DNA from: Candidatus Poribacteria bacterium
GTDB taxonomy: Bacteria > Poribacteria > WGA-4E > WGA-3G
Direction of reading: 5' to 3'
Assembly (NCBI GenBank): GCA_965261435.1
Contig: CBDHDL010000021.1
Coordinates: 2,715,950-2,779,949 of the forward strand
DNA length: 64,000 bases
Both the position numbers and the translations under genes were made by a program. How positions within the stretch are numbered: the first letter of the stretch is position 1; each line of letters begins with the position of its first letter. The notes below the pieces were generated by a model. That model was not told the origin of the DNA. It saw only the letters and a program-made list of their open reading frames with translations, and ran no database searches. Below are positions 21,892 to 54,741 of the stretch, in pieces.

Positions 21892-22674
21892 TCATATAGC
21901 TTTAAGGGATGCCCACGTAGTGGTTAGTTTCTCGGATGGTTCAACTGTTAATAAGGTCTCAATACCTCCCTGAATTTTCCTGATTTCCTTTTGGGATAGC
22001 CCGCGGTTAAACAGAGCGAATTCATCCATATCACCGTTATAGTAGCGGTTTAAACTGAACGGTTCTTCAGTACCAATCAGCAGCGATGATTCAACATGAA
22101 CTAATTTTCCATCTTGTTTTGGATGATTAATTAGCACCTCACCATCAAGGTAAACTGTCCACCACTCTCCTCTCTGAAACGATACGGCAACGTGTTGCCA
22201 TTTATCTTTCGCAATTTTGTTGAGACTTTTCTGAGGCACTACCCGTCCCTCTGAGAGTTTCCATCCCATCCAGATAAAACCATCTGGATGGAGGAGAATT
22301 TCGAAAAACTCATCTACATCTGGCCCCTTCGCTGCTATGAGTTGCCATTCACCTGGACCTCTTTCCAACGTAGGACGAATCCATGCACAAATGGTGATTC
22401 CCTCTGTAAATTCAAACTGACGAGAATGAACAACTCGAACAAAACCGTTTTCACCACCGAAATTGAGTCCCTTTCTATATTTGCCTCTGGTCCAGTCTGT
22501 ATCTCCTTCTAATAATCCATCCTGCCCGTTTCCTGACAGATCAGTTACGGTTTCACCTGCCCCATCTTCAAAAGCAAAATAGACAAGCAATCCGTCCGTT
22601 TCTTTTGCTGTGCTGATTTGAAAACTCGCTGCCAGAAATACAGTTGTAAGGAACATAACTATAAATATACGCAT
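21892..22674 (-). CDS. secreted LamG/concanavalin A-like lectin domain protein with a C-terminal ..KLTTTWASLKAI tail
   Basis: It has a signal peptide (MRIFIVMFLTTVFLAASFQISTA). Laminin_G_3-like features are DLSGNG.., LYLDGEV, and ALFNRGLSQKEI. Confidence 0.8.
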   Translation of the reverse strand: MRIFIVMFLTTVFLAASFQISTAKETDGLLVYFAFEDGAGETVTDLSGNGQDGLLEGDTDWTRGKYRKGLNFGGENGFVRVVHSRQFEFTEGITICAWIRPTLERGPGEWQLIAAKGPDVDEFFEILLHPDGFIWMGWKLSEGRVVPQKSLNKIAKDKWQHVAVSFQRGEWWTVYLDGEVLINHPKQDGKLVHVESSLLIGTEEPFSLNRYYNGDMDEFALFNRGLSQKEIRKIQGGIETLLTVEPSEKLTTTWASLKAI

Positions 22675-22708
22675 GAGTTTTACCTCTTTCTAATTTTGGA
22701 TTAATAGT

Positions 22709-22800
22709 ACCTTGTCAAGTCATAAATGATTTGTTATCGGACAGGGAAACACTGTCCCTACGAACAGATCTACTCATCATTTGAGTGTAGACAGAACAAT
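22709..22800. repeat. ~90 bp conserved upstream element (copy A), also found at 42988-43078
   Basis: About 85% identical to copy B. It contains the GACAGGGAAACACTGTCCCTACGAACAG hairpin motif related to the 30 bp tandem unit at 50279-50500. Confidence 0.7.
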
Positions 22801-22850
22801 GGGTTAAATGTGAACAGTTACAACATCCGCCAAAAATAGAGCGAGTTGTT

Positions 22851-23573
22851 CTAAGCAAAAGGAAAGGTGCCTTGGTATCCACGTGGACGCGAAACATGCC
22901 ACACACCATCATACATCGGTGTCACCTGATAATGGCAAACGACATTGCTACGTTCCATATCGTCACGTTCTTTTGCACCCTGATGTGGCATATGGTTGAT
23001 AAAGACAACACAATCTCCCGCTTTTGGATACAGAATTACGTGCTCTTGTGATTCGCACCATTCCTCAAATTTGGGACGGTCCAAGGGATACAGATGCGGG
23101 GGCTCGGTCAAATGTCCTCCCTTTACAAACTTTAGATGTCCTTCACCTGGATCATTGTCTTGGAAATAGTAGGTAGTGTTTATCCCAGCAGGAGCCATAG
23201 CAAACGGATGTTCTTCAACATACCGTTTCTCGTGCCAGTATCCGTAGAAATCCATGTGCCATTCTTGTAAATAGGGACCTGGATTGATATGCGCGCGAAG
23301 ACTGCGAAGTTGACACTGTTTACCCATTAAGCCTTCAAGATAAGGACGAACGCTGGGATGTCCAACCAGTGGAGCATAAGTATCAGGTTCACGATCCAGC
23401 AATGAATCAAACCACATATTACCGACAGCGTTTAATCCCTCTTCCCATCCCTGTTCGCGAGCATAGTTTACACGTTGGCGAATATTTTCAGTTTCTTCTG
23501 GTGATAATGCACCTTCTATTAAAATATAACCATCCTGAAGCAGTTGGTCAATATTGACTTGTTTGTCTTCCAT
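22851..23573 (-). CDS. phytanoyl-CoA dioxygenase (PhyH) family Fe(II)/2OG oxygenase
   Basis: YILIEGALSPEE is a PhyH-type N-terminus. HxD is at WHMDF and the distal His at MPHQG. Confidence 0.7.
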   Translation of the reverse strand: MEDKQVNIDQLLQDGYILIEGALSPEETENIRQRVNYAREQGWEEGLNAVGNMWFDSLLDREPDTYAPLVGHPSVRPYLEGLMGKQCQLRSLRAHINPGPYLQEWHMDFYGYWHEKRYVEEHPFAMAPAGINTTYYFQDNDPGEGHLKFVKGGHLTEPPHLYPLDRPKFEEWCESQEHVILYPKAGDCVVFINHMPHQGAKERDDMERSNVVCHYQVTPMYDGVWHVSRPRGYQGTFPFA

Positions 23574-23585
23574 GGTTGCTCTCCA

Positions 23586-24308: not shown

Positions 24309-24365
24309 AAGTTTCTCCTTATTATCAGAAATTGTTTTTAAATTACACTTTATATGAAAATGGTG

Positions 24366-24629: not shown

Positions 24630-24680
24630 AAGTTATCTCCTTCGTCGCCTCATGCGGGAAAAGGGAGGAAAGTGACATTC

Positions 24681-25874: not shown

Positions 25875-25897
25875 TATATCCTTCTTGTTGTTGAGAG

Positions 25898-26498: not shown

Positions 26499-29400
26499 TC
26501 AGTTATCTTGAAAAATTGGAGAGAGGTAACTGAGATCGTTTTCGTCTGGAAAGAGGATGTGCCATTTTTCTTGCAATTCCTGTTTACCCTTACCGCCTCT
26601 ATAACGCAGTTTTGTAAGAGGCGTTTGTGAGATAATAAAGGAATCCATTTGCACATGTTCGCCACGGAAACGTTCATAAGAGAAATCGCGTAGTCTTTTG
26701 AATTGCATAATCTTTGGATTGTTTTCATTTATAGGTTCATGTATCATACCGTGTGGTTCAATGAAGACGATACGTTGTTTCGGTTCTTCCAGTATCCACA
26801 AGATAAAATCGGGGTAGAAACCTTCATTTACGTAAAAACCGATTCCTCTACCACGACTCTGGTTTCGTAAGAGAAAAACCTCTTTTTTAACGAGTGTTTC
26901 TTCGTGCTGTTTACGCGCATAAGATCGGAGGTCTCTTACAAAATTTTCCTCGCTTTTTTCTAATGCAGGTGGGGTGATGCGTAACGTTGTGTTTTCACCA
27001 TCTACAGTCAAAAGTGGTTGATATAGATGTCGCTCATTATGGATGTTAGGGAGATCAGTTATATCAGGTCCGTATATGCTACCATCTTCTATTAGATGTT
27101 TGATGATCGGTTCAAGTTCTTCCGACTTATCTCTCGGAATGGATATTTTCCAATCTATAAAGTTACGATTCTTTTCGTCTAAATGTTTTAAACGCACGCC
27201 TTCATCATTCCAACGTTTCTGAATGATACGGTAAAATTTGGTGATATATTTGCGGAGGAGCGTAAGTACTAATTCCTCCAACTGTTCAAGTTGCTCTAAT
27301 GATTTCGGCTCAATTTCACACCTATTCATAATTTTGAGTTCATACAGAGGATTGTCTGTATTGAGGATACCCCTGAGAATATCGGCATCAAAAACAAGGT
27401 TGTGATACCCTTTTTCCTGCTTATACTCAAGAAGTTGAAGATAGATTTTTTCCCAATCTACCAAATCTAAGTATTCCTCTTTAATTGAAGTTTCGATTGC
27501 CGCTTCTGCGCGTTCGTCTTGGATACCCTCTTCTGAACTACTACCAATAATATTAACGGTTTGGGTTGTATACGTAACAATTATATCCTCACACGCCTCA
27601 AGCATAACACACTTTCCTTTTGCAGCTTTGTCATAAGACAGGACTTTGGGAACATAAAGCCGTTTTGAAAGATGATCCATATTGCGTTTAATGGGTAATT
27701 CCATGTGAATTGGATCTTCACATGGAACCCCTTCTCGCCTGAGGTATTCTTGGAAGTCTTCCATGAAGTTAGCACGCACAGCAAAGATATTGAGCGTCTC
27801 CAAAAGTGAAAGGTTAGGCGGATGATCGCCATCAAGCGCAGCACTTCGTTTGAGACTCATACCTTTGCCGCGTAGACGGACACCACGACCAAACAGCTGG
27901 ATAATCTGAGAACCTTCCTGTCTGCCGATGTTGAGCAATCCCATTGTGGTGACTCGCCAACTGTCCCATCCTTCAATAAACTTTTTTGCGCCGATGAGAA
28001 TATTGATTGAACTTTCAGGTTTGTTGATGTCGTTAAAGAGACTATCTGTTAGTACATCTTCAGGATCCATGACGATTCCCGCATTGTCATTTTGGACGAG
28101 TTTTTTAAACTTAGGCACATCACCAATGTTGATAAGTCCAAATTCCTTGTTACCGTAAGTGGTTTTTAAGGCAATTTCACCCTGTGCATTTTGGACATCA
28201 CAAAGATGTATGGCACCGCTTGAATCGGTGTGGAAAACCTCCTTGAGAATGTCAGTATAGATTTGTGATGCCGTTTCTGCTGCACCCTTGAGATAATCGA
28301 ATCGATTTTTAAAAATATCGTCATCTTGGTCAACGGACAAACCCGACTCACCTTTGAGAATAACTTCTATGCCTTGAATTGCCCATCCTTTTTCATTTCT
28401 CAGGAATCGATGTAGAAAGCGGATGACGTTTAGGACATCTGAACGCGTATAATTTTGATAAACGACGTTCACTTTACTGCCGACAAATGTCCACAATGGT
28501 GGGTCTAAGCCGTAAGTACGGACGCTGTCAGTGTTTTCCTTGAAATAACGTTTCTGTTGATAGAAACTGAGGAGATTCGCTAAAAAGAGCATTTCGGTTT
28601 GGGTTTCGTTATCGTGCCCAACGTTGATGATACGGAAGTCCTTCCCGTATCCATTGCTGTAGAAATGTCGGTAAGAGTAGTCGAAAACGATGGCTTTTCC
28701 ATATTCATCAACGAGGTCGTCATTTTTGGCAGCGGCGAGTGCTTGTCTAAAGGTTGCACTGTACTCAAAGGTAAAACCTTGTTCGGCAAGAGTTTCACGA
28801 TGATAGCGCCAGACAGGATCAGTACTGCTTGTTCCCTTGTGTCCTTCATCTACAAGGATTAGGTTATTACCTTCAAATGCCTCAACTGCCACACTTTCAC
28901 CTTCACCTGTCTTTTCTTTCACCAATTTTGTGATTTCAATGACCTGGACAGTGTTATGGGAACGGATGTTCTGATTGCCTTCAACGTTGAATCTTTCGCA
29001 TCGGATATCGGAGTTAGCGAGTTCACGCATGTGTTGTTCGCTTAATCCTTCGTTCGGTGTGATCAGGATGACGTGGTCTAACATATCTTTGCAGTAGTGG
29101 AGGTACTGGTGATAGTTAATGTGCATCATAAAGGTCTTGCCGGCACCGGTCGCCATCCACAGTGCCAGTTTTTCAATATCGGTTTTTGTGAAGTCAGTAT
29201 CCCTGGGATCGCCAGGTGCTTTCAGGGCATTTTGGGATCGGACGAATGTATTGAGTTGATGAAGGAATTCGCCAGGTTTGTTGAATTTCCAGTCTAAGAA
29301 TATCTCGGTATAAAGCAGGGACAGGTATTGAAAATAACGGAGAACAATCGGTTGTGTACGTTTACTGTTTATAGCGGATAGGTGGCGTTTGATATTGGCA

Positions 29401-29615
29401 TCGTAGATTGGTAATGCATTCTCAATCTCATTCTTCAGATCTTGGCGGGACATCAGAAATTCGCAGATGAGTGAGTGACCATTTGAAGTAAAACCCTCGT
29501 CAATGTTTGCAACATCACTAAGTAGGTCCCGAGTAGTTTCATACCCGAATTGGTTATTTAACCATCCGTGAAGAATAAGATGATTGTTGAGTTCTTTTGT
29601 TTTTTTTCTGGGCAT
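26499..29615 (-). CDS. Type III restriction enzyme Res-like subunit (SF2 helicase plus C-terminal nuclease-like motif)
   Basis: Walker A is MATGAGKT, the DExH box is LVDEGHKG, motif III is SAT, and motif VI is QLFGRGVRLRG. The C-terminus has PDFILWI..VFIEPHG (PD-ExK-like, with K replaced by H?). It lies immediately downstream of the mod-like gene. Confidence 0.65.
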   Translation of the reverse strand: MPRKKTKELNNHLILHGWLNNQFGYETTRDLLSDVANIDEGFTSNGHSLICEFLMSRQDLKNEIENALPIYDANIKRHLSAINSKRTQPIVLRYFQYLSLLYTEIFLDWKFNKPGEFLHQLNTFVRSQNALKAPGDPRDTDFTKTDIEKLALWMATGAGKTFMMHINYHQYLHYCKDMLDHVILITPNEGLSEQHMRELANSDIRCERFNVEGNQNIRSHNTVQVIEITKLVKEKTGEGESVAVEAFEGNNLILVDEGHKGTSSTDPVWRYHRETLAEQGFTFEYSATFRQALAAAKNDDLVDEYGKAIVFDYSYRHFYSNGYGKDFRIINVGHDNETQTEMLFLANLLSFYQQKRYFKENTDSVRTYGLDPPLWTFVGSKVNVVYQNYTRSDVLNVIRFLHRFLRNEKGWAIQGIEVILKGESGLSVDQDDDIFKNRFDYLKGAAETASQIYTDILKEVFHTDSSGAIHLCDVQNAQGEIALKTTYGNKEFGLINIGDVPKFKKLVQNDNAGIVMDPEDVLTDSLFNDINKPESSINILIGAKKFIEGWDSWRVTTMGLLNIGRQEGSQIIQLFGRGVRLRGKGMSLKRSAALDGDHPPNLSLLETLNIFAVRANFMEDFQEYLRREGVPCEDPIHMELPIKRNMDHLSKRLYVPKVLSYDKAAKGKCVMLEACEDIIVTYTTQTVNIIGSSSEEGIQDERAEAAIETSIKEEYLDLVDWEKIYLQLLEYKQEKGYHNLVFDADILRGILNTDNPLYELKIMNRCEIEPKSLEQLEQLEELVLTLLRKYITKFYRIIQKRWNDEGVRLKHLDEKNRNFIDWKISIPRDKSEELEPIIKHLIEDGSIYGPDITDLPNIHNERHLYQPLLTVDGENTTLRITPPALEKSEENFVRDLRSYARKQHEETLVKKEVFLLRNQSRGRGIGFYVNEGFYPDFILWILEEPKQRIVFIEPHGMIHEPINENNPKIMQFKRLRDFSYERFRGEHVQMDSFIISQTPLTKLRYRGGKGKQELQEKWHILFPDENDLSYLSPIFQDN

Positions 29616-29635
29616 TTCAGTATTCTTTGGCGGAT

Positions 29636-32600
29636 TTATTCTGAAAACATCAATCGTTTGAATATCGGATCTAAGGATTTAGCATCTGGAATGTTGCTGC
29701 ATGTGTTTACATATACTTCGTCTATGTCTACTATTAGTTCTTGTTCCTGAATGAACTGGTAATCGCGTTCATAGTTTTCTTGCCCCCATCCCGCAGTTTC
29801 ACGCCAGATAATGACAACAGTTTTTTGATCAACTATACCTTTGTAGACAAGATAACGTCTTTCACCATCTTGCAGACACTGACGAGTCTGAACTGATAAA
29901 CCCAATAGATAGTTGAAGGTTTCAGGTAAGTCTACTTTCTGCGTTTGTGGCTGCATGTCTTTGACAATCTTGAGTTTGTAGCTAAATGGGTCTTGTAGTT
30001 CAGAGATGTTTAGGAGTGTTTGACTTTCCTTTGTCTCACTTTCCAACATATAACGCAATCGGTGTTCGTCAGTTAGCAGGACTCTTTCGTTATCGGATTC
30101 GTTGAATTCTATGTTATTAAGGGCATCTTCATAGGATTCAATGCGTTGGTATTTGAAAATGTGGGAAAGACAGCTATCACGGGAGACAGGTTTGGAATCT
30201 TTCCATTTTTCAGCATAGACAGCTTTTTTGACGCGAGGCATCAGGACAGTATCAAAATGATGCGCCATTTCAATAAGGATGTATTTACGGTTTCCATTGT
30301 CTTTACGATTGAGATTGATAACAGCATGGGTATTTGTCCCACTGCCAGCAAAAAAGTCAAGTGTCATGCCTTCTCCATCAGGTGTAACTGACCAAACGAG
30401 TTTTTCATACAAACCTACGGGATGAGAATACGGAAAATCTAAACCAAACGCGTCCAGTTGGTGTTTGCCTCTTTCACCAGTAGAAATTACAGACGTTAAT
30501 TCACCTATCAGGTTATCTTTCAAATAACACTTTCTGCGTGGTTGAGTTGTTTCGTCAATCCCAAAACTAACTTCATTATTCTGTAATAAATCATCTATGT
30601 ATTCTGGGGTACTTGACCAACCATTTTTTGGCACAGGACAAGGTTTCTTAGTAATAGGATGAATTAAAGGTCTAAAGTATTTAGGATCTGTTCGAACATC
30701 TCCAGCTCCCATGTGGACTGTTGTATAAACATGTCCATTTTCGTCAATTGCAGAATAAGATCGTTCCATTCCGCTTAACTCTCTTTTCGTGTTGATCCAA
30801 GTTTTATATTCATTACGACATTGGACTGTAACTCCACCATGTGCTTTCACTAATGACGATGCTTTTCTTAGTATCATTTCACCATTAGCATGCTGTGACT
30901 TTAATTTCACATTTCCCTTAGAATGACAAATAGTATATTCGTGTTGTGTTGCTATCGTATTTGATGCTCCAATGGGGTTCCTTTTATCCCATACAACTGT
31001 CCCTTGATCATCCATTGATAGTGTTTTAAAAAACAAAAAGAGTTTCTCATATTCGCTCTCGTCAATATGGGAGAAGAAACAACTATCCTGGGCCATAAAA
31101 TGTTCAGATAAAGTCAATCTATCTGCCATCATTGATAACCAACTTGAATGCTGGTATGAGTTTTTATAGAGAAACCCACTTGTTTGCGTATTATACGGTG
31201 GATCAATATGTATGCATTTTATTGATTCACGATATTTCTCCGTCAGCAGGTTTAGTCCTTGAAAGTTCTCACCGTGAATTAGCAAACCTTCTGTCTCGCC
31301 ATCCAGATCGTCAAAATGCGCCAAGAGGCGATCCTTGAAGATAGAATCAAAATGACAGGTATCCAAAACGAGATTCGGATTTTCTTTGAGAAAGTCAACG
31401 GAGAGCGGTTCGGTATATTCTGTATTGATAAGGTTTTTGTCTATTTCGTGAATAGTAAATAGGTCTTTCCATTCCTCAAGTTGTGCAGTATTCTCTGCAA
31501 TTTCTGGGTAGAAATCTTCTGGCACACGGTCAAGTGTGAGGCAGTAGTCGGTGGATAGAACAAATTTCTTTTTCAGCCAGAGACGTTTTTGGAATTCCTC
31601 AATGTGTGCTAAGAAGTCAATAATCTGTGCAGCAATGTGATGGAAAATCTTGCTTGTTTCAATCCAATTTACTTTCTTCAGGTCATCATCATTGAAATTG
31701 ACATCATCAAAAATAAGGGAGGACATCGGTATCACTTCGCTTTTGATATAAACATCCAGTTCGCGGGCAAGAAATCTCTTTAGATCTTTGTGAATAAAGA
31801 AGTCTGCGGAGTTACGACGTGTGTATCTCTGAAGGTGTGTTTTAAGAAGTGTTACTTCATCTGTTGCTTGTGCCAACTTGCTCTGAATTGTATAATCGTT
31901 TTTCAGATTTGTTAGGATTTCTTTCTCAGCCGTTTCAATGATCTTATCTTGTTGTTTTTGGCCTTTATATACAATTTTCTCTGCATCATTAAGTGGACGG
32001 TATTCAAATGGGATGCAAACTTCATCGGTTTCAGCGTTATAGGTTGTTTCGGAAGATAGAGGAAGGAAGAAACGTTTGACTCCTTTGACGTTGTCTTTTT
32101 CAATATCTACATTTTTCAAATCAAAAATGACAGTGGTGCTACCGACTTTGACTCTATACTCAGAGAAGTGTTCACCACTCTTGACGTAATACTGGTCTCG
32201 GTTTGCCCAATGGAGATATACCTCTTCACCGTTATATGGCACTGCATAACGTTCGGTCTGTGAATAGCGTCTGCGTGGAATGAAGTCACCGTTATCGTAG
32301 TAACGTGAAAAGAAAGTATAAAGGTGATTGAATACGTTATATGAACGTTGGTCAGAGGTTTGCGGGGAACCGATTTGCTCTTGTGCTTCAAGGTATTCCT
32401 TAACCAAGGGACGTTCTTTCACTGTTGCATCAATGAGATCTCCATCAGCGTTTAGAACATCAGCACCAAAAGCATTTATCACCTGACTCCTTAAATCTTC
32501 CAGTTTTTCGCGATCTGATTCAATTTCTGCATTTGCATTAAGCGCGTTTTCAATGATGCTTGGAATTTCCTCTTGAATGAAACTTTGGATGAGATCGCGC

Positions 32601-32722
32601 CGATGATTGATAATACGATAAATACCGAAGTCAAGGTCAGCGACATCTGCGCGGAATAACTTTTGAAGTAAGGATTGTAGTTTTTGTAAGGATTCGGAGC
32701 GGTTGTTTTGAGTTTGTTGCAT
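29636..32722 (-). CDS. beta-class N6-adenine (or N4-C) DNA methyltransferase, Type III Mod-like, with a ~400 aa N-terminal extension
   Basis: Motif IV is IHIDPPYNT (~aa 510) and it precedes motif I LDFFAGSGTNTH (~aa 780), which is the beta-class order. At 1028 aa it is far larger than a typical Mod. Confidence 0.65.
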   Translation of the reverse strand: MQQTQNNRSESLQKLQSLLQKLFRADVADLDFGIYRIINHRRDLIQSFIQEEIPSIIENALNANAEIESDREKLEDLRSQVINAFGADVLNADGDLIDATVKERPLVKEYLEAQEQIGSPQTSDQRSYNVFNHLYTFFSRYYDNGDFIPRRRYSQTERYAVPYNGEEVYLHWANRDQYYVKSGEHFSEYRVKVGSTTVIFDLKNVDIEKDNVKGVKRFFLPLSSETTYNAETDEVCIPFEYRPLNDAEKIVYKGQKQQDKIIETAEKEILTNLKNDYTIQSKLAQATDEVTLLKTHLQRYTRRNSADFFIHKDLKRFLARELDVYIKSEVIPMSSLIFDDVNFNDDDLKKVNWIETSKIFHHIAAQIIDFLAHIEEFQKRLWLKKKFVLSTDYCLTLDRVPEDFYPEIAENTAQLEEWKDLFTIHEIDKNLINTEYTEPLSVDFLKENPNLVLDTCHFDSIFKDRLLAHFDDLDGETEGLLIHGENFQGLNLLTEKYRESIKCIHIDPPYNTQTSGFLYKNSYQHSSWLSMMADRLTLSEHFMAQDSCFFSHIDESEYEKLFLFFKTLSMDDQGTVVWDKRNPIGASNTIATQHEYTICHSKGNVKLKSQHANGEMILRKASSLVKAHGGVTVQCRNEYKTWINTKRELSGMERSYSAIDENGHVYTTVHMGAGDVRTDPKYFRPLIHPITKKPCPVPKNGWSSTPEYIDDLLQNNEVSFGIDETTQPRRKCYLKDNLIGELTSVISTGERGKHQLDAFGLDFPYSHPVGLYEKLVWSVTPDGEGMTLDFFAGSGTNTHAVINLNRKDNGNRKYILIEMAHHFDTVLMPRVKKAVYAEKWKDSKPVSRDSCLSHIFKYQRIESYEDALNNIEFNESDNERVLLTDEHRLRYMLESETKESQTLLNISELQDPFSYKLKIVKDMQPQTQKVDLPETFNYLLGLSVQTRQCLQDGERRYLVYKGIVDQKTVVIIWRETAGWGQENYERDYQFIQEQELIVDIDEVYVNTCSNIPDAKSLDPIFKRLMFSE

Positions 32723-33681: not shown

Positions 33682-34431
33682 TTGAAACAATTACTATGTT
33701 TATTGATATCTTCTGTACTCTTGATGTGTTTAATTTCAGGTGTAACTGCAGAAGATGCTTTAGTAGCATACTTTTCATTTGATGGTGATGCAGAAGATTC
33801 ATCTGGAAACGAAAACCATGGCGTCATAAAAGGCAACTCTAAATGGGATAAAGGAAAATTTGGTGATGCGATTCATCTTGATGTTGGTGCACATGTTGAG
33901 ATGATGGTATCTGAATCATTACATGGAAATCTATTCAAAACCGACCCTTTTACGATTTCTGTATGGATAAATCCAACATTTGAAGGTGGGCAATGGCAAC
34001 AGATATGGCGAAGTCTGCCTGGGGATGCGGGACACAATACTTTATTTGTTAACACAGTTCAAGGTTTATTGTCATGGAGAGGGCGAGTCGCTGGCTGGAC
34101 TGTTCTATGTGAAACTGATGCTGGTCAAATCAAAAAGGATGAGTGGAGTCATACTGTCGTCCAAAGTGATGGAAAGAACTATAGGATATATATTAATGGT
34201 AAGTTGGCTAAAGAGACAGACTTTCAAGAAACCACCGGGGCAAATAATACCTACCGACTTGGCGGTGAAGGTGGTGAAGGATATGGCGGTGCGATCGATG
34301 ATGCCGCTGTCTTTTCACGGAATTTAAGTGAAAATGAGATTTCAGCATTGGGAGATGGACTTGATACGTTTTTGTCGATTGAACCTAATCACAAATTGAC
34401 AACACGGTGGGGAAAAATTAAAGGCTTTTGA
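33682..34431 (+). CDS. secreted LamG/concanavalin A-like domain protein with a C-terminal ..KLTTRWGKIKGF tail
   Basis: It has a signal peptide. Features are DSSGNENHG, YINGKL, and AAVFSRNLSENEI. Confidence 0.8.
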   Translation: MKQLLCLLISSVLLMCLISGVTAEDALVAYFSFDGDAEDSSGNENHGVIKGNSKWDKGKFGDAIHLDVGAHVEMMVSESLHGNLFKTDPFTISVWINPTFEGGQWQQIWRSLPGDAGHNTLFVNTVQGLLSWRGRVAGWTVLCETDAGQIKKDEWSHTVVQSDGKNYRIYINGKLAKETDFQETTGANNTYRLGGEGGEGYGGAIDDAAVFSRNLSENEISALGDGLDTFLSIEPNHKLTTRWGKIKGF

Positions 34432-36841: not shown

Positions 36842-37939
36842 ATGAAAAGATCAAATATCACCTTTTCCATATTGCTTGCGTTTATAGCAACCCTATTATT
36901 CCTTTCGACCACTAATGCTAAATGGACTGTCATCCGTGAGGATAATTTTATACGCGATGATGGTATACAAGGGATGCTACACGATGTTCATTTTATGGAT
37001 AGTCAAAACGGATTGGTAGTTGGAGATAACGGTTTAGTCCTTGAAACCGCAGACGGTGGAAAGACTTGGTCTAAAAAAGAAATTAATATGCGTCCTCCAG
37101 GGGCTGCACAAGCACAGAGAAGACCGCAAGGGACAGGAGGTGGACCACCGCCAGGTTTAGGTGGGGGTGGTACTGCAACCCTATATAATATCTATTTTGT
37201 AGATGAAAAAATCGGATACCTGACTGGTGCAAGAGGAACTATTTTAAAGACCGATGATGGTGGGAAAACTTGGAATCGGAAAATGGCAAGAAACGAGGCT
37301 GCAAATCAAAATAATAACCGACGTCGCGGGGGTGGAATCCGTGCCAGTCTAATGGGAATTCAGATGATTGACGAAAAGACCGGATTCATTGTGGGTACTG
37401 AAAACGCAATTCTGAAAACAACCGATGGGGGAGAAACTTGGATCGGTAAGTCCGAACGTGTCCGCGTCGGTGAAACTCGCAACAATTTGGAAAATATACG
37501 CTTCGTTTCACCAACAACAGGTTGGATAATCGGTTCATTCGGAACACTTCTCTATACCAAAGATAGTGGTGAAACATGGGAAAAACGTAATCCCGGTTTC
37601 GACAACAATCTATTTGGTATTCACTTTCATGATGAAAAAACTGGATGGATTTGTGGACAGGAAGGATTGATTCTCAACACAACCGATGGCGGCAAGACAT
37701 GGAAACAGCAGAAAACAGATTCTTATGATAACCTGCTGGATATTTACTTCGTTGACAATATGGTAGGATGGGCTGTGGGAGACTATAGTGCTGTCTTGCA
37801 CACCACAGATGGAGGCAAAACTTGGACTGCATCAAAAGCTGGTGGAAGTGGCACTCTCAAAGGTGTTCACGCCACAGACAAAAGCCATTGTTGGACAGTA
37901 GATGACTGGGGTGTGATAGCAGCCTATAAAACAGAATAA
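36842..37939 (+). CDS. secreted BNR/Asp-box repeat beta-propeller protein (Ycf48-like)
   Basis: It has a signal peptide and about 6 repeats of T(D/T)DGG(K/E)TW, with a Gly-rich linker. Confidence 0.75.
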   Translation: MKRSNITFSILLAFIATLLFLSTTNAKWTVIREDNFIRDDGIQGMLHDVHFMDSQNGLVVGDNGLVLETADGGKTWSKKEINMRPPGAAQAQRRPQGTGGGPPPGLGGGGTATLYNIYFVDEKIGYLTGARGTILKTDDGGKTWNRKMARNEAANQNNNRRRGGGIRASLMGIQMIDEKTGFIVGTENAILKTTDGGETWIGKSERVRVGETRNNLENIRFVSPTTGWIIGSFGTLLYTKDSGETWEKRNPGFDNNLFGIHFHDEKTGWICGQEGLILNTTDGGKTWKQQKTDSYDNLLDIYFVDNMVGWAVGDYSAVLHTTDGGKTWTASKAGGSGTLKGVHATDKSHCWTVDDWGVIAAYKTE

Positions 37940-39237: not shown

Positions 39238-39927
39238 ATGCAGAATACAAAACCTTATCAAATTCCTTATGTGCCAACAGAAGATACTATCATATATCCA
39301 GAAACAGATGGTGAACCGCTTGCTGAAACAGAACGCCACCTCAGACATATTATTCGGATGTTAGATATGCTTGAGACCCATTTCTTGAATGTATCAGATG
39401 TTTATGTGTGGAGTAATATGATGATGTATTACAAAATGGGAAATCCAAGAGTATTCGTCAAACCTGATATTTTCGTTTCCTTTGGTATTGGCAAACAGGA
39501 ACGACGTATTTATAAAGTGTGGGAAGAGGGAAAACCTCCAGATTTCATCATGGAGTTCGCAAGTAAAAGCACCTACGGCAATGATCTAACTGTCAAGAAG
39601 GACATCTATACAGCAATTGGCGTTACAGAATATTTTCTATATGATCCGTATAAATCCTGTTTGCCATCAACATTAATGGGTTATCGACGTGTTGGTGAAG
39701 AATATATTGAAATTTCACCGCTTGAAGATGGAACTATACATTCAGAGACATTAAACTTGGACTTCCAATCACAAGAGGATGGATGCGGTGTTTTTGACCC
39801 TGTTGCAGGAGAGTGGTTAAAGACTCGTGCTGAAAAGGAAGAAGCAAAACGCAAGAAAGCAGAGGATGAATTGGAAAAACTACGAGAAAGAATCAAGACT
39901 CTGGAATCTAAGTCCGCTGATTCATAG
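39238..39927 (+). CDS. Uma2 (DUF820) family putative endonuclease with a C-terminal coiled coil
   Basis: ETDGEPLAETERH .. DVYVWSNMMMYY .. KPDIFV .. PDFIMEFASKST .. GVTEYFLYDP are Uma2-like. Confidence 0.75.
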   Translation: MQNTKPYQIPYVPTEDTIIYPETDGEPLAETERHLRHIIRMLDMLETHFLNVSDVYVWSNMMMYYKMGNPRVFVKPDIFVSFGIGKQERRIYKVWEEGKPPDFIMEFASKSTYGNDLTVKKDIYTAIGVTEYFLYDPYKSCLPSTLMGYRRVGEEYIEISPLEDGTIHSETLNLDFQSQEDGCGVFDPVAGEWLKTRAEKEEAKRKKAEDELEKLRERIKTLESKSADS

Positions 39928-39993: not shown

Positions 39994-40836
39994 ATGGATT
40001 CTTCGTGGCTTGAATACTGTGCAACAGCAGAACAACTCAGCGCATTTAATGACACAGGCTACCTCATTGTAGAGGACGCAATCAGTCCTGAGATGACAGA
40101 TGCTTTAGAGAAGATCGCTGATCGCATTGATGCTGCAGAACGCGCAAAAAATGGATTAGGTCCCCACAAATTACTATCCAAATTCCGTACTGTCATTGAA
40201 GATGATCTGCTATTAGAACTGCTTGATAACAAGAAGGTATTTGCTTTACTCTGGGACATTCTGGGATGGAACATACAACTCTACATCTCACATCTCATTA
40301 TGTATCCACCTGAACCACCTGATGCAGAACGTATCCGTAAAGGAGCAGGTTGGCACCAGGACGGTGGCAGACCTATTCCAGAGATGGAACGTCCACACCC
40401 ACGACTTTCGTTAAAGGTCAGTTATTGGTTAAGCGATGTTACGCACAGAGATAATGGGGCAATGCGACTTATTCCAGGTAGCCACAAACTTGATAAAATC
40501 CCTCCGCGTAACGATCCTGAAAGTGATCCTGATGGTGCGATAGATTTACTTGTCAAACGTGGTACTGCTGTGCTTTTCGACCGAAGAATGTGGCATTCAA
40601 GAGGTAGAAACTATTCCGACGTAACGCGCAAGGTGTTATTCATGGGATATAGTTATCGTTGGTTGCGCGGTCTGGACTATAATCTTATGCCAGAGGAAAT
40701 CCTTGAGAAATGCAATCCCATACGACGCCAGTTGTTAGGTGATGGCGTAGATATTAAAGGGTGGTGGCAACCTACAGATGCCGATGTCCCCTTGAAAACG
40801 TGGATTGCAGAGCATCGTGGAGAAGAATATGTGTGA
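39994..40836 (+). CDS. phytanoyl-CoA dioxygenase (PhyH) family protein
   Basis: GYLIVEDAISPE, WHQDGG, and a distal His in MWHSRG. Confidence 0.7.
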   Translation: MDSSWLEYCATAEQLSAFNDTGYLIVEDAISPEMTDALEKIADRIDAAERAKNGLGPHKLLSKFRTVIEDDLLLELLDNKKVFALLWDILGWNIQLYISHLIMYPPEPPDAERIRKGAGWHQDGGRPIPEMERPHPRLSLKVSYWLSDVTHRDNGAMRLIPGSHKLDKIPPRNDPESDPDGAIDLLVKRGTAVLFDRRMWHSRGRNYSDVTRKVLFMGYSYRWLRGLDYNLMPEEILEKCNPIRRQLLGDGVDIKGWWQPTDADVPLKTWIAEHRGEEYV

Positions 40837-41897: not shown

Positions 41898-42965
41898 TCA
41901 AAATGTATCCACGCCATCCGTTAACCACGCCAAATCAAACTTTGCAAACGACAATGTTTCAGAAGCACCACGTTCACCTCGCTCATAGAGACAACATATA
42001 TTCATGTCCGAATCAATACAGAGATCGGAATAGGCAGCAGGACCCTCGTGTAAAACTTTTCCACTGTTCCAACTGCGGCATTCATCATAGCTGATTCGGA
42101 TAGTCATTTTCTCTCGACCTGTACTTGCAGGATTAGAGAACAGTATGCGGTTCTTGTCGTGGGTATTCTCATCAGTATATCGCACCATGCTTGCTTGACA
42201 GATCGGCTCAATCAGATCATCATCATAACCAAATTCTGTGAACGTGTCTCCACCATCAGAACTCCAAGCATACGCGCGTCGTTTTGGTGCTACATAGTTT
42301 CTACAGTTGAAATATAGATCACCGTTTACGGTCTCAACGACAACCGATTCATTTGTGCCTGGTTGTGCTTCTCCAGCAATACGCCATGTTTCCCCATGAT
42401 CATCACTGACAATAAGGTGTGAATACCCCATCTCAGCATAGTTTCGGCTTTGTCCAAGCACATGATCACACGGGATAACCATTCTGCCACTTGCTAATTG
42501 AATGCCGTGACATGGACCCGTAGCATACCATGTCCATGTGTCCAATTTCGTATCAGCAGTAACTTCTCTGGGTTCAGCCCAGGTTTCACCGTCATCAGTA
42601 CTATTGGTTACCCATACGGTACGCGGTGCTTCTCCGGCGATAATTTTACCTTCTCCACCATCAGCGAAGTTCTTACAGAATAGTAACCAAATAGTACCTG
42701 TATCACGGTCTACGACAGGGGCAGGATTGCCGTCCGTATCCGCCCCTGTTGAAACAGCAACTTGCATCGGTTGCCATGTTTCACCCTTGTCAAAACTCCG
42801 TTTCAGTACGATATCAATATCACCTGAATCTCCACCACCCTTTCTCCTGCCTTCACAAAAAGCCAACAGAGTTCCTTCTTTTGAGGCAATAAGTGCTGGG
42901 ATACGATATGTGTTATAGTCGTCTGTTCCCGCAGTGAAAAGTGGATTTTCTGTTTTATACATCAA
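41898..42965 (-). CDS. exo-alpha-sialidase (GH33-like, BNR repeats)
   Basis: The YRIP motif is present (NTYRIPAL), with several Asp-boxes (SFDKGETW, STDDGETW, SDDHGETW, SSDGGDTF). No signal peptide is evident. Confidence 0.85.
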   Translation of the reverse strand: MMYKTENPLFTAGTDDYNTYRIPALIASKEGTLLAFCEGRRKGGGDSGDIDIVLKRSFDKGETWQPMQVAVSTGADTDGNPAPVVDRDTGTIWLLFCKNFADGGEGKIIAGEAPRTVWVTNSTDDGETWAEPREVTADTKLDTWTWYATGPCHGIQLASGRMVIPCDHVLGQSRNYAEMGYSHLIVSDDHGETWRIAGEAQPGTNESVVVETVNGDLYFNCRNYVAPKRRAYAWSSDGGDTFTEFGYDDDLIEPICQASMVRYTDENTHDKNRILFSNPASTGREKMTIRISYDECRSWNSGKVLHEGPAAYSDLCIDSDMNICCLYERGERGASETLSFAKFDLAWLTDGVDTF

Positions 42966-43082: not shown

Positions 43083-43802
43083 TTATCTGGTGTGTTTCAA
43101 TTTTCCCCAAATTGTTGCTAATTTTCCACGCGCTGCAACGGGTGCGGGATCATCAAGCACCAATTCATCAGCACCTTTTTGGTGATCAGAAATCCGTAGT
43201 CCATCAACGACACAATTCGTCGGAAATTTAGGATCCGGTGGAGATGCGTTATTTATTTCAAAGGTTGGCGCGAAGACAGTAGGTCCCCCATCAAAATCAT
43301 CCTCACCTTCAAGTACACCATCAAGATAGAGTTTCAATCCATCGGGTCCCCATGTTCCTGCCATGTGGTGGTGTTCACCCTTTTTCCAGTTGAGTGCCTC
43401 ACTGTTAGCGTTGTGCCATGAATTAGCACTTTTAATCCGCATCTGTGCAATACCACCGTTGTTAAACTGTAGAAAAATTGCATCAGTACCGCGTTTGTAA
43501 GTCATGAACGTAAAGAGTTCTCCTGTGATAGTGCTGGTATCCATACCCATTGTCACCCACAACTCAACTGTGCCTTCTTCAAGGTTGACGAATCGGTCTT
43601 CAACAGGAAAATGGATAACATCTCCAACTTCTTCACTGAGAAATCCGTTGCCAAATTTACCGGGAACGAAACTGCCGCCATCAACAGTCCCACCTTCACT
43701 CTCAACTTCAGCTTTGCTTTCAAGTGCAGAGAAGAACGTTTCTTCTGCTATTGCGACAGAAAGACATAGAAATGTAATTGTAATCACGCACAATGTTTTC
43801 AT
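43083..43802 (-). CDS. secreted concanavalin A-like lectin/glucanase-fold protein with a C-terminal ..KLATIWGKLKHTR tail
   Basis: It has a signal peptide (MKTLCVITITFLCLSVAIA). GTVELWV .. LKLYLDGVL resembles a jelly-roll lectin fold. Confidence 0.65.
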   Translation of the reverse strand: MKTLCVITITFLCLSVAIAEETFFSALESKAEVESEGGTVDGGSFVPGKFGNGFLSEEVGDVIHFPVEDRFVNLEEGTVELWVTMGMDTSTITGELFTFMTYKRGTDAIFLQFNNGGIAQMRIKSANSWHNANSEALNWKKGEHHHMAGTWGPDGLKLYLDGVLEGEDDFDGGPTVFAPTFEINNASPPDPKFPTNCVVDGLRISDHQKGADELVLDDPAPVAARGKLATIWGKLKHTR

Positions 43803-47344: not shown

Positions 47345-48352
47345 TCAAATTGAGAGATCGTTTATTACATAAGTTTCTTGCAATGCTAACGCAAGCGGCG
47401 TGCCATCTCCTAAGAGCGAAAGAAGCCTTTGAATAGAAGGGAACCCGTCTTTATCAATCAAATTAGAAACGATCGCTGCAGATTGCAGATACCATATTTT
47501 TCGTTCTGAGGCGGTAAGTTCGGTAAACGGTTCCTCCAGTTCTTTCAATGTCGGTAGTGAATTTTCTTTCTCTGCTTGTTCTAAAGTGAGTTTCTCAAAA
47601 GCAAATAAAGGTCGTGCTATCGTCTGGGCAAGTCCTTCGTTGAACCATACCGGACATTTTCCGCTCGCCTTGATATCTACCAATAGGTGAGTCCACTCGT
47701 GTCGAAAGAGCGTATACAAGATCCCAAGTTCCGGTTCTTCATCTGAACAATAGTTCAGATATATATGTCCATCGTAAGCCCCACCTGCCCATTGTGGCAG
47801 ATGGTCCTCTGACGTGGCGTTGTGTAAGTTCTTTATTGTTATAGGAACTTGGTTAGATGGAAAGCAGTTAAGATATGAACCAACTTCTTTATAGGTGAAG
47901 TCTATGAGTTGACAGAAATGCCAAAGTGTTTGAGGAAGTATTGGGGGTTCAACAGTCAAGTCAAAAAAACCGTGTTTAACTTCTTGGCGTCTATTGCTGG
48001 TAATATCAAAATGTATAGTTGGGACGAAATCTGAAGGACGTTTATTTGTTAGTTCAAGTTGGTAAATGATTGACTGATAATACGTCTTCTCCTCACTGAT
48101 ACGTGCCTTCCGTCTAAGCGTCGTTGTTGAATTTGGACATAATTGGAGCGAGATATCAAGGTAGGTTAAAGCCTGTTCCCAATTTCCAATCATTTCATAA
48201 GCTTTAGCAAGGTCAGCGTAAATATAGTAACGACTCTTGTCATATTTCAGACCCGCTAAATAATGTTGAATTGCCTCAACATATCGGGCTTTTTGAAAAC
48301 AGGTCGCAGCTTGTTGAAAATAGGACAAGGCAAGTGAGGAAGGATTTTGCAC
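47345..48352 (-). CDS. TPR-repeat protein with a C-terminal HExxH (HEWTH) metallopeptidase-like domain
   Basis: The N-terminus has TPR repeats, followed by LFRHEWTHLL. Confidence 0.55.
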   Translation of the reverse strand: MQNPSSLALSYFQQAATCFQKARYVEAIQHYLAGLKYDKSRYYIYADLAKAYEMIGNWEQALTYLDISLQLCPNSTTTLRRKARISEEKTYYQSIIYQLELTNKRPSDFVPTIHFDITSNRRQEVKHGFFDLTVEPPILPQTLWHFCQLIDFTYKEVGSYLNCFPSNQVPITIKNLHNATSEDHLPQWAGGAYDGHIYLNYCSDEEPELGILYTLFRHEWTHLLVDIKASGKCPVWFNEGLAQTIARPLFAFEKLTLEQAEKENSLPTLKELEEPFTELTASERKIWYLQSAAIVSNLIDKDGFPSIQRLLSLLGDGTPLALALQETYVINDLSI

Positions 48353-52050: not shown

Positions 52051-52054
52051 TTTC

Positions 52055-52129: not shown

Positions 52130-52142
52130 ATCTTTTCTATTC

Positions 52143-52216: not shown

Positions 52217-52290
52217 TCCTTCCTGCTGTTTGAATAACGGTGTTCTCAGTATGTTATCATAAGTAATACATAAATGAGGATTCAAAGTTC

Positions 52291-53958
52291 ATGAAAACAT
52301 TCTCTTTTTTTCTTACAACCCTCTTAGCGACTTGTCTTGTCTATTTGCCGATAACGCTTTCCCATGAAGTTCCGCATACCACGTTCAGAGGGCACACGTC
52401 TTTTATATACAAAATCACTTTCAGTCCTGATGGTGATTTGTTGGCAAGTAAGAGCTCGGACGGTGCGTTGAAAATATGGGATGTTCATACCAAACAACTT
52501 AAGCATACAATTAACACAAGCCGAGGCGGCGGAATTGCATTTAGTCCAGATGGCAATATCCTGGCAAGTGGTGGTGGTTCAGATAATGTTGTGAATCTCT
52601 GGGATCCAAAAACAGGTGAACTATTGAGAACGTTGAAAGAACCACTTGATAATGTGTCAAGTGTTGTATTCAGTCCTGACGGGGATATCATCGCAAGTGG
52701 ATGTGCAGATGGTTGGGTGCGTCTTTGGAACACGCATACAGGAGAACTCCTAAGAGCGTTTCGAACTATCGATCAAGTTTCAATAGTTTTTAGAGATGAT
52801 GGTAGTATTATTTCTTATGATGTAAAGAATCATGAATTTCCTAAGAGACCTGAGATTATAGTTAGGGAACTGGAAACTGGACAACTTCTTTACACTCTTG
52901 AACCTGATGTACAGGAAGTGTTCGGTGTTACGTTCAATCCTGATCGAGACGTCGTGGCGAGTGCTGGGTGGAGTGGTGTTGAATTATGGGATGCAGATAC
53001 AGGCGAACTTTTACGGACTCTATCCCACGGGCATTCAGTTTTCTTCCAAACAGCATTTAGTCCTGATGGACGTATTATTGCAGGCGTGCAAGACTTTGGA
53101 GGTATCTGGTTATGGGATACTCAGAACGGATTACTTTTAAACAGTTTTAAGGCACATGACGGGGACGGATATGCCGTAGCGTTTAGTCCGGATGGTAGCA
53201 CGCTTGCCACTGCTGGTTCGGATGATTTGATACAACTTTGGCATATTACGCCACCTGATGATATAGAACCACCCCAGCCTCCTGATTTTTTAGTAAACAA
53301 GGACCTGCAAGAATGGGTTGAGGACTTTGAGGAAGACTCCCTCACTTCATGGACGAAACGCGAATTGCAGCGAGAAAGAGTTACTTGGCAGGTAAAGAAC
53401 GGTCGTATGCATGCGCGAACAGTCGCATGGTGTAATGGACGATTGAATCTCGGTGATAGCTTGGCGCATCAAACCAATTACACGCTTAGATTCACAGGGT
53501 TACCGCTTGATGTTGAACAGTTAAGTGTAAAACTTAACATACATTCAACGGATAATGCTAACGTTGGCATTTTCATGGGTCAGGATCCTCAAGATGAACT
53601 GACTCATCCATTAGAATATGCATATCAATTCGCGGACCATCGATTAGGCGGGCCAGAAATATTGAGTGGGTCAGGTCCACCACAGATAAGTTTTAATTTA
53701 GACGAGATAGAGGTCGTGTTTGATAACGGACATTTCTATCTTTATTCAGATGATGAATACATCGCTGACTTTAATACGAGAACACTTAAAAAGACTGACT
53801 TTATCGGAATCGTCGTATTTCCTAAGAGATGTTTTGAAATCGCTGAGGCAGTCGTGGATGATTTTGTGATTTCAGGCCCATCAATTCTTGATGGGAGTTT
53901 AGATGTTCATCCTAAGGACAAAGTTACTGTTTTATGGGGTAAGCTTAAGCAACAATAG
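52291..53958 (+). CDS. secreted WD40-repeat protein fused to a ~240 aa C-terminal module ending ..VTVLWGKLKQQ
   Basis: It has a signal peptide, about 7 WD40 blades (FSPDG..LAS...D..VRLWN), and a C-terminal module homologous to the 54016..54741 product. Confidence 0.8.
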   Translation: MKTFSFFLTTLLATCLVYLPITLSHEVPHTTFRGHTSFIYKITFSPDGDLLASKSSDGALKIWDVHTKQLKHTINTSRGGGIAFSPDGNILASGGGSDNVVNLWDPKTGELLRTLKEPLDNVSSVVFSPDGDIIASGCADGWVRLWNTHTGELLRAFRTIDQVSIVFRDDGSIISYDVKNHEFPKRPEIIVRELETGQLLYTLEPDVQEVFGVTFNPDRDVVASAGWSGVELWDADTGELLRTLSHGHSVFFQTAFSPDGRIIAGVQDFGGIWLWDTQNGLLLNSFKAHDGDGYAVAFSPDGSTLATAGSDDLIQLWHITPPDDIEPPQPPDFLVNKDLQEWVEDFEEDSLTSWTKRELQRERVTWQVKNGRMHARTVAWCNGRLNLGDSLAHQTNYTLRFTGLPLDVEQLSVKLNIHSTDNANVGIFMGQDPQDELTHPLEYAYQFADHRLGGPEILSGSGPPQISFNLDEIEVVFDNGHFYLYSDDEYIADFNTRTLKKTDFIGIVVFPKRCFEIAEAVVDDFVISGPSILDGSLDVHPKDKVTVLWGKLKQQ

Positions 53959-54015
53959 ATACATTACGTTTGAAATGAGTCTGCTGCACTGTCAATATTC
54001 CCATGGAGGAAACGC

Positions 54016-54741
54016 ATGACATTATTTTTCCGGTTTACTCTATTTCTTTGTCTGATACCATTCATTCATATTGCAACTGCTAATGGTGCATCGTGGGTTG
54101 AAGACTTTAACGATTTATCTTTCAAATCATGGGTAAAGGATGATCCTAACAATCGGTCTACTTGGCAGCCAAAAGATGGATACTTAGATGTCTGGGCTCA
54201 GCCTTTTCCACCACCTGGAATATATGATACGTATGCACTACAGTTCAACGGATTTCAATTTGATGCACAAACAATTAGTGTGCAACTCAAGATTCTTGAA
54301 GCACGCGGCGGAAGTGTTGGTATTCTTATCGGACAATATGATGATGGGCAATTGAGTATATATCGCAAGACAGTTGCATTTCTACACACAGCTGCTCTAA
54401 GCGGAGTGATTTTTAAACCTAAGGAATTTGAGATAATTAAAAAGGATAAAACAGATAAACCAATTCCTACGCCACTTAAGGCAATAGAGATCTCATTTGA
54501 CAAGGGTGATTTTGAGGTGTATACCAAACGGCAATTTATCGCAAAATATCATATTCCTCAACTCAAGACAGTTAATTTCCTCGGGATAGTTTCTATAGTA
54601 GATATGGGACGGGGTGCGATTGCACACTTTGTTTTAGATGACTTTGTAATTTCTGGTCCCAATGTTCCTGCACACGGAACATTAGACGTGATTCCTAAAC
54701 ATAAGGCTGCTGTCCTGTGGGGTAAGCTAAAAAAACGGTAA
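54016..54741 (+). CDS. secreted protein consisting of the same C-terminal module, ending ..AAVLWGKLKKR
   Basis: It has a signal peptide. SWV(E/K)DF.., F(L/I)GIV.., and DDFVISGP..LDV.PK.K..VLWGKLK are shared with the 52291 product. Confidence 0.7.
   Translation: MTLFFRFTLFLCLIPFIHIATANGASWVEDFNDLSFKSWVKDDPNNRSTWQPKDGYLDVWAQPFPPPGIYDTYALQFNGFQFDAQTISVQLKILEARGGSVGILIGQYDDGQLSIYRKTVAFLHTAALSGVIFKPKEFEIIKKDKTDKPIPTPLKAIEISFDKGDFEVYTKRQFIAKYHIPQLKTVNFLGIVSIVDMGRGAIAHFVLDDFVISGPNVPAHGTLDVIPKHKAAVLWGKLKKR

Follow-up and report, generated by a model that had tools for sequence, protein, structure and literature searches.

How are exported proteins placed in or beyond the envelope of Poribacteria? 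These bacteria are dominant uncultured symbionts of sponges, and they export many lectin-like and eukaryote-like repeat proteins that are presumed to mediate interactions with the host and with glycans. A peptide that bears on this question recurs in a stretch of 64,000 nt from a Candidatus Poribacteria bacterium (assembly GCA_965261435.1, contig CBDHDL010000021.1, positions 2,715,950 to 2,779,949 of the forward strand), which was analysed as a whole and is called the window here. Five of its genes encode exported proteins that end in nearly the same tail. Our analysis favours, at somewhat better than even confidence, the view that this tail is a modular, Poribacteria-specific C-terminal tag that acts as an envelope sorting or docking address on exported proteins. 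The five proteins and their tags are listed below (positions within the window; aa, amino acids).

21892..22674, minus strand: exported LamG (Laminin_G_3) protein 1, 260 aa, tagged; signal-like N-terminus, Laminin_G_3 at aa 75-231
21895..21951, minus strand: tag of protein 1, LTVEPSEKLTTTWASLKAI, with Ala after the Trp instead of the usual Gly
33682..34431, plus strand: exported LamG protein 2, 249 aa, TTG start, tagged; Pfam Laminin_G_3 to aa 221, AlphaFold2 model available
34372..34428, plus strand: tag of protein 2, LSIEPNHKLTTRWGKIKGF
43083..43802, minus strand: exported LamG protein 3, 239 aa, tagged; Laminin_G_3 at aa 73-213
43086..43145, minus strand: tag of protein 3, APVAARGKLATIWGKLKHTR
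52291..53958, plus strand: exported protein 4, a WD40 propeller plus a concanavalin-like jelly roll (predicted), 555 aa, with a variant tag
53899..53955, plus strand: tag of protein 4, LDVHPKDKVTVLWGKLKQQ, variant K-V-T-V-L-W-G
54016..54741, plus strand: exported protein 5, a single concanavalin-like jelly-roll domain (predicted) without Pfam match, 241 aa, with a variant tag
54682..54738, plus strand: tag of protein 5, LDVIPKHKAAVLWGKLKKR

All five open reading frames (ORFs) end in the pattern [KR]xxxxW[GAS]x[LIVM][KR] followed by two to three residues, and this pattern is not found elsewhere in the six frames of the window. A six-frame scan with the shorter motif W[GA]x[LIVM]K gave exactly five matches, each two to three residues from the stop of a tagged ORF, while the looser motif W..[LIVM]K had eight further matches in window ORFs of 80 aa or more, all at non-terminal positions. 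As seen in the sequence, the N-termini of all five proteins show a basic residue, a hydrophobic stretch and a cleavage-like site made of small residues. The initial annotation had described five signal-peptide proteins that share a near-identical tail close to the stop codon, and its coordinates and protein ends are confirmed by these scans. Three other exported proteins of the window, a WD40 lipoprotein (6617-8122), a BNR protein (36842-37939) and a 716-aa protein (58251-60401), lack the tag, which is therefore selective. The C-terminal module of protein 4 (52291-53958) is homologous to the whole of protein 5 (54016-54741), and neither has a match in Pfam. This gene pair (WD40, jelly roll and tag, then jelly roll and tag; 52291-54741) is kept in the same order and orientation on another Poribacteria chromosome (locus L121, positions 8265-10723, on a 5.9 Mb contig), where the flanking genes differ from those of the window.

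We scanned one genome per species (185,579 species) with a degenerate DNA pattern for K-L-[AT]-T-x-W-G-x-[LIM]-K. The scan returned at least 139 matches in at least 120 loci, and among the matches listed 134 of 139 are in frame and followed by a stop codon after 1-12 residues, most often 3. Among the loci listed, 108 of 120 are labelled as Poribacteria, six as 'uncultured bacterium' and one as a Pseudomonadota bin from a sponge (L055). All 134 terminal matches listed belong to Poribacteria-labelled or unlabelled metagenome-assembled genomes or to this one bin. The five loci from Prevotella, Synechococcus, Hyphomicrobiales, Elusimicrobia and Acidoferrum have only internal, non-terminal matches and were discarded as chance hits. 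L055 (JAPPIL010000222.1, 'Pseudomonadota bacterium RHO2_bin_21') encodes two adjacent tail proteins that are homologous to a Poribacteria ankyrin-tail protein, and a Poribacteria bin, RHO2_bin_20 (L111), comes from the same sample; the Pseudomonadota label is probably due to mis-binning. Judged by the sequences available, the tag is restricted to the phylum Poribacteria.

In 905 crudely called genes from the window and the 120 related loci, 160 of 161 matches to the regular expression [KR]....W[GAS].[LIVM][KR] lie within 12 residues of the C-terminus. From composition, 2.6 matches would be expected anywhere and 0.11 in terminal position, so that chance is excluded by the 160 terminal matches observed. 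Homology searches gave 49 homologues of protein 5, down to 33% identity, and 50 homologues of the LamG protein 2, and the source, where named, is Candidatus Poribacteria in every case. Absence of the tail from orthologues, which the initial annotation had considered, was not found: every full-length homologue of protein 5 and the LamG orthologues keep it. All 49 homologues of protein 5 end in ...K-A-A-V-L-W-G-E-L-K, the tail being nearly invariant and its V, K, W, G, L and K invariant. Within this jelly-roll family the mean frequency of the major residue is 0.85 in the tail versus 0.58 in the body of the protein.

A profile built from the five tails (30 residues each) and searched against 1.84 billion representative proteins gave 38 matches at E<=1e-3, about 33 of them genuine and almost all of these with the motif at the extreme C-terminus. 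Most of the set are fragments at contig ends, and the search confirmed the terminal position and not the diversity of the tagged proteins. A profile of 40-residue tails (76 sequences) gave 62 candidates and 13 short fragments, and no census of architectures was derived from it. Some metagenome contigs are dense in tail genes (L192:2164-9918, L180 and L167), with six of them within about 8 kb in L192, and slightly divergent tails such as GKLSSTWGAVK and KSATCWGQIK occur on these contigs. The tag may also be present in lineages other than the marine Poribacteria that the genome collection covers.

The consensus of the tag comprises about 18 residues, [LTF]-[APS]-V-[EDS]-[PA]-x-[GDN]-K-L-[AT]-T-T-W-G-x-[LI]-K, followed by 1-8 residues that are rich in R, Q, S and K and mostly basic or polar. 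Window proteins 4 and 5 carry a family-specific variant, K-[AV]-[AT]-V-L-W-G-[EK]-L-K. Counting from the first Lys of the core (K0), several positions are conserved although they were not part of the search pattern: Val at -5 in 156 of 160 tails, Pro or Ala at -3 in 147 of 160 (Pro in 100, Ala in 47), as well as Glu, Asp or Ser at -4, Ala, Pro or Ser at -6 and Gly, Asp or Asn at -1. K0, W5, G6, K9 and V-5 are nearly invariant over more than 20 families. The part from K0 onwards has a net charge of about +3. The best 15-residue Kyte-Doolittle window per tail has a mean of 0.07 and a maximum of 1.19, without any transmembrane-grade stretch, and the hydrophobic moment shows its main peak at 160 degrees (0.56, strand-like) and a second one at 110 degrees (0.46). 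R, Q and K dominate as last residue; F, W or Y is found there in 19 and K in 18 of 132 tails.

At every conserved position of the tag all synonymous codons are used, and the pairwise identity at codon positions 1, 2 and 3 is 0.67, 0.81 and 0.37, respectively. With third positions nearly randomised, it is the peptide that is under selection, and not a repeated DNA element. Two short database proteins, P0052 and P0077, contain several tandem internal tail-like peptides (e.g., TIARGKLTTVWGKL three times), which may represent assembly errors, frame artefacts or repeats that stem from tail-coding DNA.

Is the tail part of the preceding domain? Pfam matches to Laminin_G_3 stop at residue 231 of 260, 221 of 249 and 213 of 239 in proteins 1-3, and the tail lies past the domain in each case. 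An AlphaFold2 model of protein 5 (42-sequence alignment; predicted local distance difference test, pLDDT, 82) comprises an all-beta domain at aa 25-214, while aa 221-241 have pLDDT values below 50. The model of protein 2 (33 sequences, pLDDT 86.6) is folded to about aa 232 and drops below 50 for aa 234-249, with a low-confidence helical turn at W-G-K-I of the tail. In both models the tail is predicted to be a free, disordered extension and not a strand of the jelly roll. This supports the earlier view that the tail lies beyond the end of the LamG domain (about aa 213-231), and the low values of the last 16-21 residues argue against a mere terminal beta-strand. A further claim of the initial annotation, that the window shows the tail behind different folds because the module of proteins 4 and 5 is unrelated to LamG, has to be withdrawn. 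Foldseek matches of the protein 5 model in the PDB are GH16 glucanases, legume lectins, ERGIC-53/Emp46 and a galectin-like protein, all of them concanavalin-like jelly rolls, and the module and LamG are thus predicted to share the concanavalin-like fold superfamily. Since all five tails follow a concanavalin-like fold, the window alone gives no proof of fold independence.

The other genomes show that the tag is independent of the preceding fold. After removal of the tail, 100 complete tail proteins fell into 22 BLAST clusters. Laminin_G_3 is present in about half of the tagged proteins according to Pfam. Other tagged families are 3keto-disac_hyd/DUF1080, CBM9, F5/8 type C, a six-bladed Kelch propeller, ankyrin repeats and DUF3108-like proteins, and large proteins, from 735 to over 1,390 aa in length, combine Big_12 with a lamin-tail domain (LTD). 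Several tagged families have no Pfam model at all, and the WD40 cargo is contributed by the window. Restriction of the tail to a few paralogues, which had also been considered, is not compatible with at least 22 BLAST families that include Kelch, ankyrin, CBM9, F5/8 type C and immunoglobulin (Ig)-like plus LTD proteins. A strongly hydrophobic N-terminal segment is encoded by 97% of the tail genes, compared to 33% of the other genes in the same loci, and lipobox-like sites are rare among tail genes (9 of 136). Our data demonstrate that the tag is strictly C-terminal, non-spanning and cationic, and that it is under strong purifying selection on a subset of Sec-exported proteins.

How does the tag compare to known C-terminal signals? 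The initial annotation had stated that the motif matches none of them, and the database searches agree. NCBIfam (release 20, including the models for PEP-CTERM, the type IX secretion system (T9SS) and other CTERM signals) gave no match to the five proteins at E<=1, and the isolated tails gave no match to the NCBIfam CTERM models, TIGR02595 among them, even at E<=10. No model of Pfam (2025 copy) covers the tail. In the full-text literature no description of the motif was found, the only matches to motif strings being degenerate primer sequences, and a search for Poribacteria together with sorting, exosortase, PEP-CTERM or LamG revealed nothing relevant. The tag is so far undescribed in Pfam, NCBIfam and the searchable literature; its kind, the C-terminal localisation tag, is already known.

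The closest parallel is the PEP-CTERM/exosortase system, whose signal is likewise found at the extreme C-terminus of Sec-exported proteins of many architectures, and whose succession of a short Pro motif (P-E-P; in the tag V-[EDS]-[PA], with Pro in 100 and Ala in 47 of 160 tails), a conserved stretch and a basic end resembles that of the tag. LamG is a typical cargo of PEP-CTERM and is common on the tag as well. Unlike PEP-CTERM, the tag has no transmembrane helix and does not match TIGR02595, and its motif is followed by a polar and basic stretch (K-L-T-T-T-W-G-x-I-K). Poribacteria loci amounting to about 1 Mb yielded no C-terminus that resembles a classical PEP-CTERM. A distant LamG homologue (P0148, 31% identity; L122:10001-10852, GCA_029260735.1), which served as positive control, ends in VPEPSSFLLLLSVTLFSLFSLFCQRKK and passes the PEP-CTERM model TIGR02595 with 18.6 bits (cutoff 16). 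Its VPEP aligns with [SP]-V-E-P of the tag, which suggests that the tag sits where this relative has a genuine sorting signal. LPXTG, GlyGly-CTERM and other tripartite signals differ from the tag, which has neither a match to an NCBIfam CTERM model nor a hydrophobic segment. Lacking a transmembrane helix, it stands outside every known tripartite class.

The C-terminal domain (CTD) of T9SS substrates (TIGR04183) is comparable in that it, too, marks the C-terminus of Sec-exported proteins of adhesin-like, lectin-like or repeat type in a diderm. However, the CTD is folded and comprises about 70-100 residues, whereas the tag has about 18, shows pLDDT values below 50, and TIGR04183 has no match in the five proteins. 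For Poribacteria 'potential' TIGR04183-type C-terminal domains have been described together with a lack of T9SS genes, and the secretion pathway 'remains to be revealed' (Kamke et al. 2014, PMC3909097). Signals of type I secretion are found on substrates without a Sec signal peptide, in contrast to the 97% signal-like tail proteins. The outer-membrane beta-signal requires a final aromatic residue, which is present in only the 19 of 132 tails mentioned above, and the cargo of the tag consists of soluble folds. Lpp, which is attached to peptidoglycan, ends in Lys, as do only 18 of 132 tails, and the conserved Lys of the tag is located 1-8 residues from the end. C-terminal amphipathic anchors such as that of Escherichia coli PBP5/DacA form a longer helix of low sequence conservation. 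Like the tag they are short, non-spanning and positively charged peptides at the C-terminus of a Sec-exported soluble domain, but the tag differs from them in its few residues, its high content of Thr and Gly and its nearly invariant sequence.

Based on these comparisons we suggest the following route. The cargo, mostly small glycan-binding or repeat domains, would be exported by its N-terminal Sec-type signal peptide, with the tag joined to it by a flexible linker. After export, a conserved envelope protein would read the tag as a linear peptide and fix the cargo, either by docking or attachment at the membrane or cell surface or by handing it over to an outer-membrane route, so that it would not be left free in the periplasm. 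Cleavage, if it takes place, could fall at V-E-P, the position aligned with the PEP of the PEP-CTERM homologue. A protein reader is favoured over generic lipid binding because the tag is nearly invariant across unrelated cargo, and the distance of 1-8 residues to the end together with the order of motif, segment and basic end makes the tag resemble sorting signals. Of the proposal of a C-terminal sorting or anchoring signal made by the initial annotation, the position-specific conservation across folds stands, as the other genomes show; the sorting function is our interpretation, no processing enzyme was identified, and the tag has no transmembrane segment of the kind found in tripartite sorting signals.

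Which protein could read the tag? In the vicinity of tail genes we repeatedly found PhyH, Gfo/Idh/MocA, ECF sigma factors, FG-GAP/ASPIC, TPR and PQQ-like propellers. These families were rejected as machinery and read as expansions common in Poribacteria or as gene order conserved among orthologous loci. A protein with TPR and Peptidase_MA_2 domains (zinc metalloprotease-like; 47345-48352, minus strand) is encoded between tail genes of the window, with no evidence of a link to the tag. DUF6785+DUF6784 (Pfam) is a polytopic membrane protein of about 650-700 aa that occurs in multiple copies and has many invariant Arg, Glu and His residues. Its profile has no relative among solved structures and no informative match in NCBIfam, and a literature search for DUF6785 found nothing. 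Genes for this protein are located directly downstream of a Kelch-tail gene in L001 (two copies; L001:2654-6789) and downstream of two F5/8C-tail genes in L070 (2593-4548 and 6537-8000). In L017 (3529-5505) the gene follows two tail genes with one gene between, and in L072 (3616-5589) it is divergent from a LamG-tail gene. Further copies lie directly beside tail genes in L101 (5767-7878) and in the metagenome loci L142, L150, L153, L157, L167, L180, L192 and L194.

As an independent test of this linkage, 80 metagenome loci (735 kb) were picked by DUF6785 homology alone and analysed against a null model of permutation within each locus. These loci contain 30 tail ORFs spread over 20 loci. Within 400 nt of a DUF6785 gene we found 12 of the 30, compared to 4.6 +/- 1.6 under the null model (P~1e-4), and 8 tail ORFs are positioned immediately upstream of DUF6785 on the same strand. 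The tail proteins next to DUF6785 are LamG, DUF1080, F5/8C or unannotated proteins, all with signal peptides, and what they have in common is the tail and an exported lectin-like module. DUF6785+DUF6784 is a candidate for the reader because its genes lie directly beside tail genes of several families, but as the specific partner it is a rather doubtful one. In this version of the model a permease or enzyme of the membrane would have interchangeable periplasmic modules for glycan binding tethered to it by the tag. Tethered substrate-binding proteins, either lipid-anchored or fused, are similar in that the genes for interchangeable periplasmic binding modules immediately precede the gene for a polytopic membrane protein, in our case DUF6785/DUF6784. 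They differ in that most tail genes are not beside DUF6785, and we know of no transporter family with a shared C-terminal docking peptide.

Several observations weigh against this interpretation of the tag and its reader. No protease or sortase-like gene was found to be enriched near tail genes. Only about 2-3% of the tail genes adjoin DUF6785, the window has five tail genes and no DUF6785, and DUF6785 is widespread, mostly among sugar-catabolism genes in loci without tails. The adjacency of tail and DUF6785 genes could reflect a shared function in glycan foraging and not physical contact. The parallel to PEP-CTERM comes from one homologue, P0148. More tentatively, and below even chances, the tag may be part of an undescribed envelope targeting system of Poribacteria and close relatives, in which V-E-P-x-x-K-L-T-T-W-G-x-I-K is the ticket for a dedicated membrane machine, possibly DUF6785/DUF6784. 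Such a system would form a third class beside the tripartite signals and the folded T9SS signals.

Other explanations for the tag have to be weighed against a sorting or docking address read by a protein. The tag could be a self-sufficient anchor, its Trp and Lys binding the membrane interface, lipopolysaccharide or peptidoglycan without a protein reader, by analogy with PBP5. The charge of about +3, the invariant Trp with flanking Lys, the second moment peak at 110 degrees, the weakly predicted helical turn at W-G-K-I and the exported cargo would suit such an anchor. We nevertheless consider it unlikely: amphipathic segments that bind lipids are usually poorly conserved, whereas K0, W5, G6, K9 and V-5 are nearly invariant throughout the phylum, the core has only about 10 residues, is rich in Thr and Gly and has its strongest moment at the strand-like 160 degrees, and the conserved upstream V-x-P is left without a role. 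A cleaved, sortase-type signal that is derived from or parallel to PEP-CTERM would be cut at V-E-P by a membrane enzyme, followed by covalent attachment of the cargo to a component of the envelope and loss of K-L-T-T-W-G-x-I-K and the basic end. Here the layout of V-[ED]-[PA], spacer, conserved segment and basic end mirrors tripartite signals, V-E-P aligns with the VPEP of a true PEP-CTERM protein (P0148), only 1-8 residues are tolerated after the motif, and the polytopic DUF6785 beside some substrates would be typical of sorting enzymes. Against this, there is no hydrophobic segment that could hold the signal in the membrane (mean 0.07, maximum 1.19), no match to TIGR02595 or any other NCBIfam CTERM model even at E<=10, and about 30% of the tails have Ala instead of Pro. 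No exosortase was seen, though no whole-genome exosortase search was made, and DUF6785 is multi-copy and widespread outside tail-bearing loci. This explanation, too, appears improbable.

The Thr-rich core and the invariant Trp-Gly could also be viewed as a modification sequon, with the Thr run or the Trp being, for example, glycosylated and the adjacent DUF6785 as the putative enzyme, a multi-span protein of about 650 aa with many invariant Arg, Glu and His residues. We regard this as very unlikely, since DUF6785 has no detectable similarity to glycosyltransferases or solved structures, the variant K-A-A-V-L-W-G has no Thr, and the strict C-terminal position would be left unexplained. A disordered and strictly C-terminal peptide on exported proteins might as well be recognised by a periplasmic tail-specific protease or a quality control system, as a degron or maturation signal. 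Yet the C-termini recognised by known tail-specific proteases are non-polar and are read at a set distance from the carboxylate, while the tag has a basic or polar end of variable length (1-8 residues), and conservation throughout the phylum on many stable-looking lectin-like domains is hard to rationalise for such a signal, which makes it highly improbable. That there is no separate element at all, the tail being the final strand of one domain family in few paralogues or a translated DNA repeat, would fit the concanavalin-like jelly roll in front of all five window tails, but we give this almost no credence: both AlphaFold2 models place the tail, as a disordered segment, outside the fold, it also follows Kelch, ankyrin, CBM9, F5/8C and LTD domains, and codon position 3 is nearly randomised (0.37) while positions 1 and 2 are conserved.

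The tail genes of the window are surrounded by genes for two PhyH dioxygenases, a Gfo/Idh/MocA oxidoreductase and two BNR/sialidase-like proteins (22851-23573, 39994-40836, 38024-39235, 36842-37939 and 41898-42965), which fits a glycan-foraging neighbourhood of typical Poribacteria expansions. A Uma2-family putative endonuclease is encoded at 39238-39927. The window further harbours a type I restriction-modification system with specificity, methylase and restriction subunits and a second system, at 10078-15203 and 26499-32722 (both minus strand); the second system consists of two proteins of about 1,030 aa, one a ResIII/helicase and the other an N6_N4 methylase. The untagged WD40 propeller at 6617-8122 (plus strand) has a lipoprotein-type signal (...ALFIGC), and two long ORFs that overlap it, 6938-8188 (minus strand) and 7596-8192 (plus strand), are probably not genes. 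Next to dnaK, three tandem paralogues of 209-220 aa without Pfam match are found at 17702-19655 (minus strand), each ending in ...CDRILGI(L/F)SSMV(A/T)QK(V/A). An unannotated family of about 213 aa (7 members in 4 loci), similar in length to these paralogues, occurs in other Poribacteria loci.

On more than 20 families the tag provides a computable marker of a protein set, a handle for phylogenetic profiling and a short peptide for heterologous testing. It may also give the first functional clue for the DUF6785/DUF6784 membrane proteins. If the interpretation as a sorting address is true, the tag would be a structurally new bacterial C-terminal sorting signal, with neither a transmembrane helix nor a folded domain, and would serve as a shared ticket for a large fraction of the exported lectin-like and eukaryote-like repeat proteins of Poribacteria.

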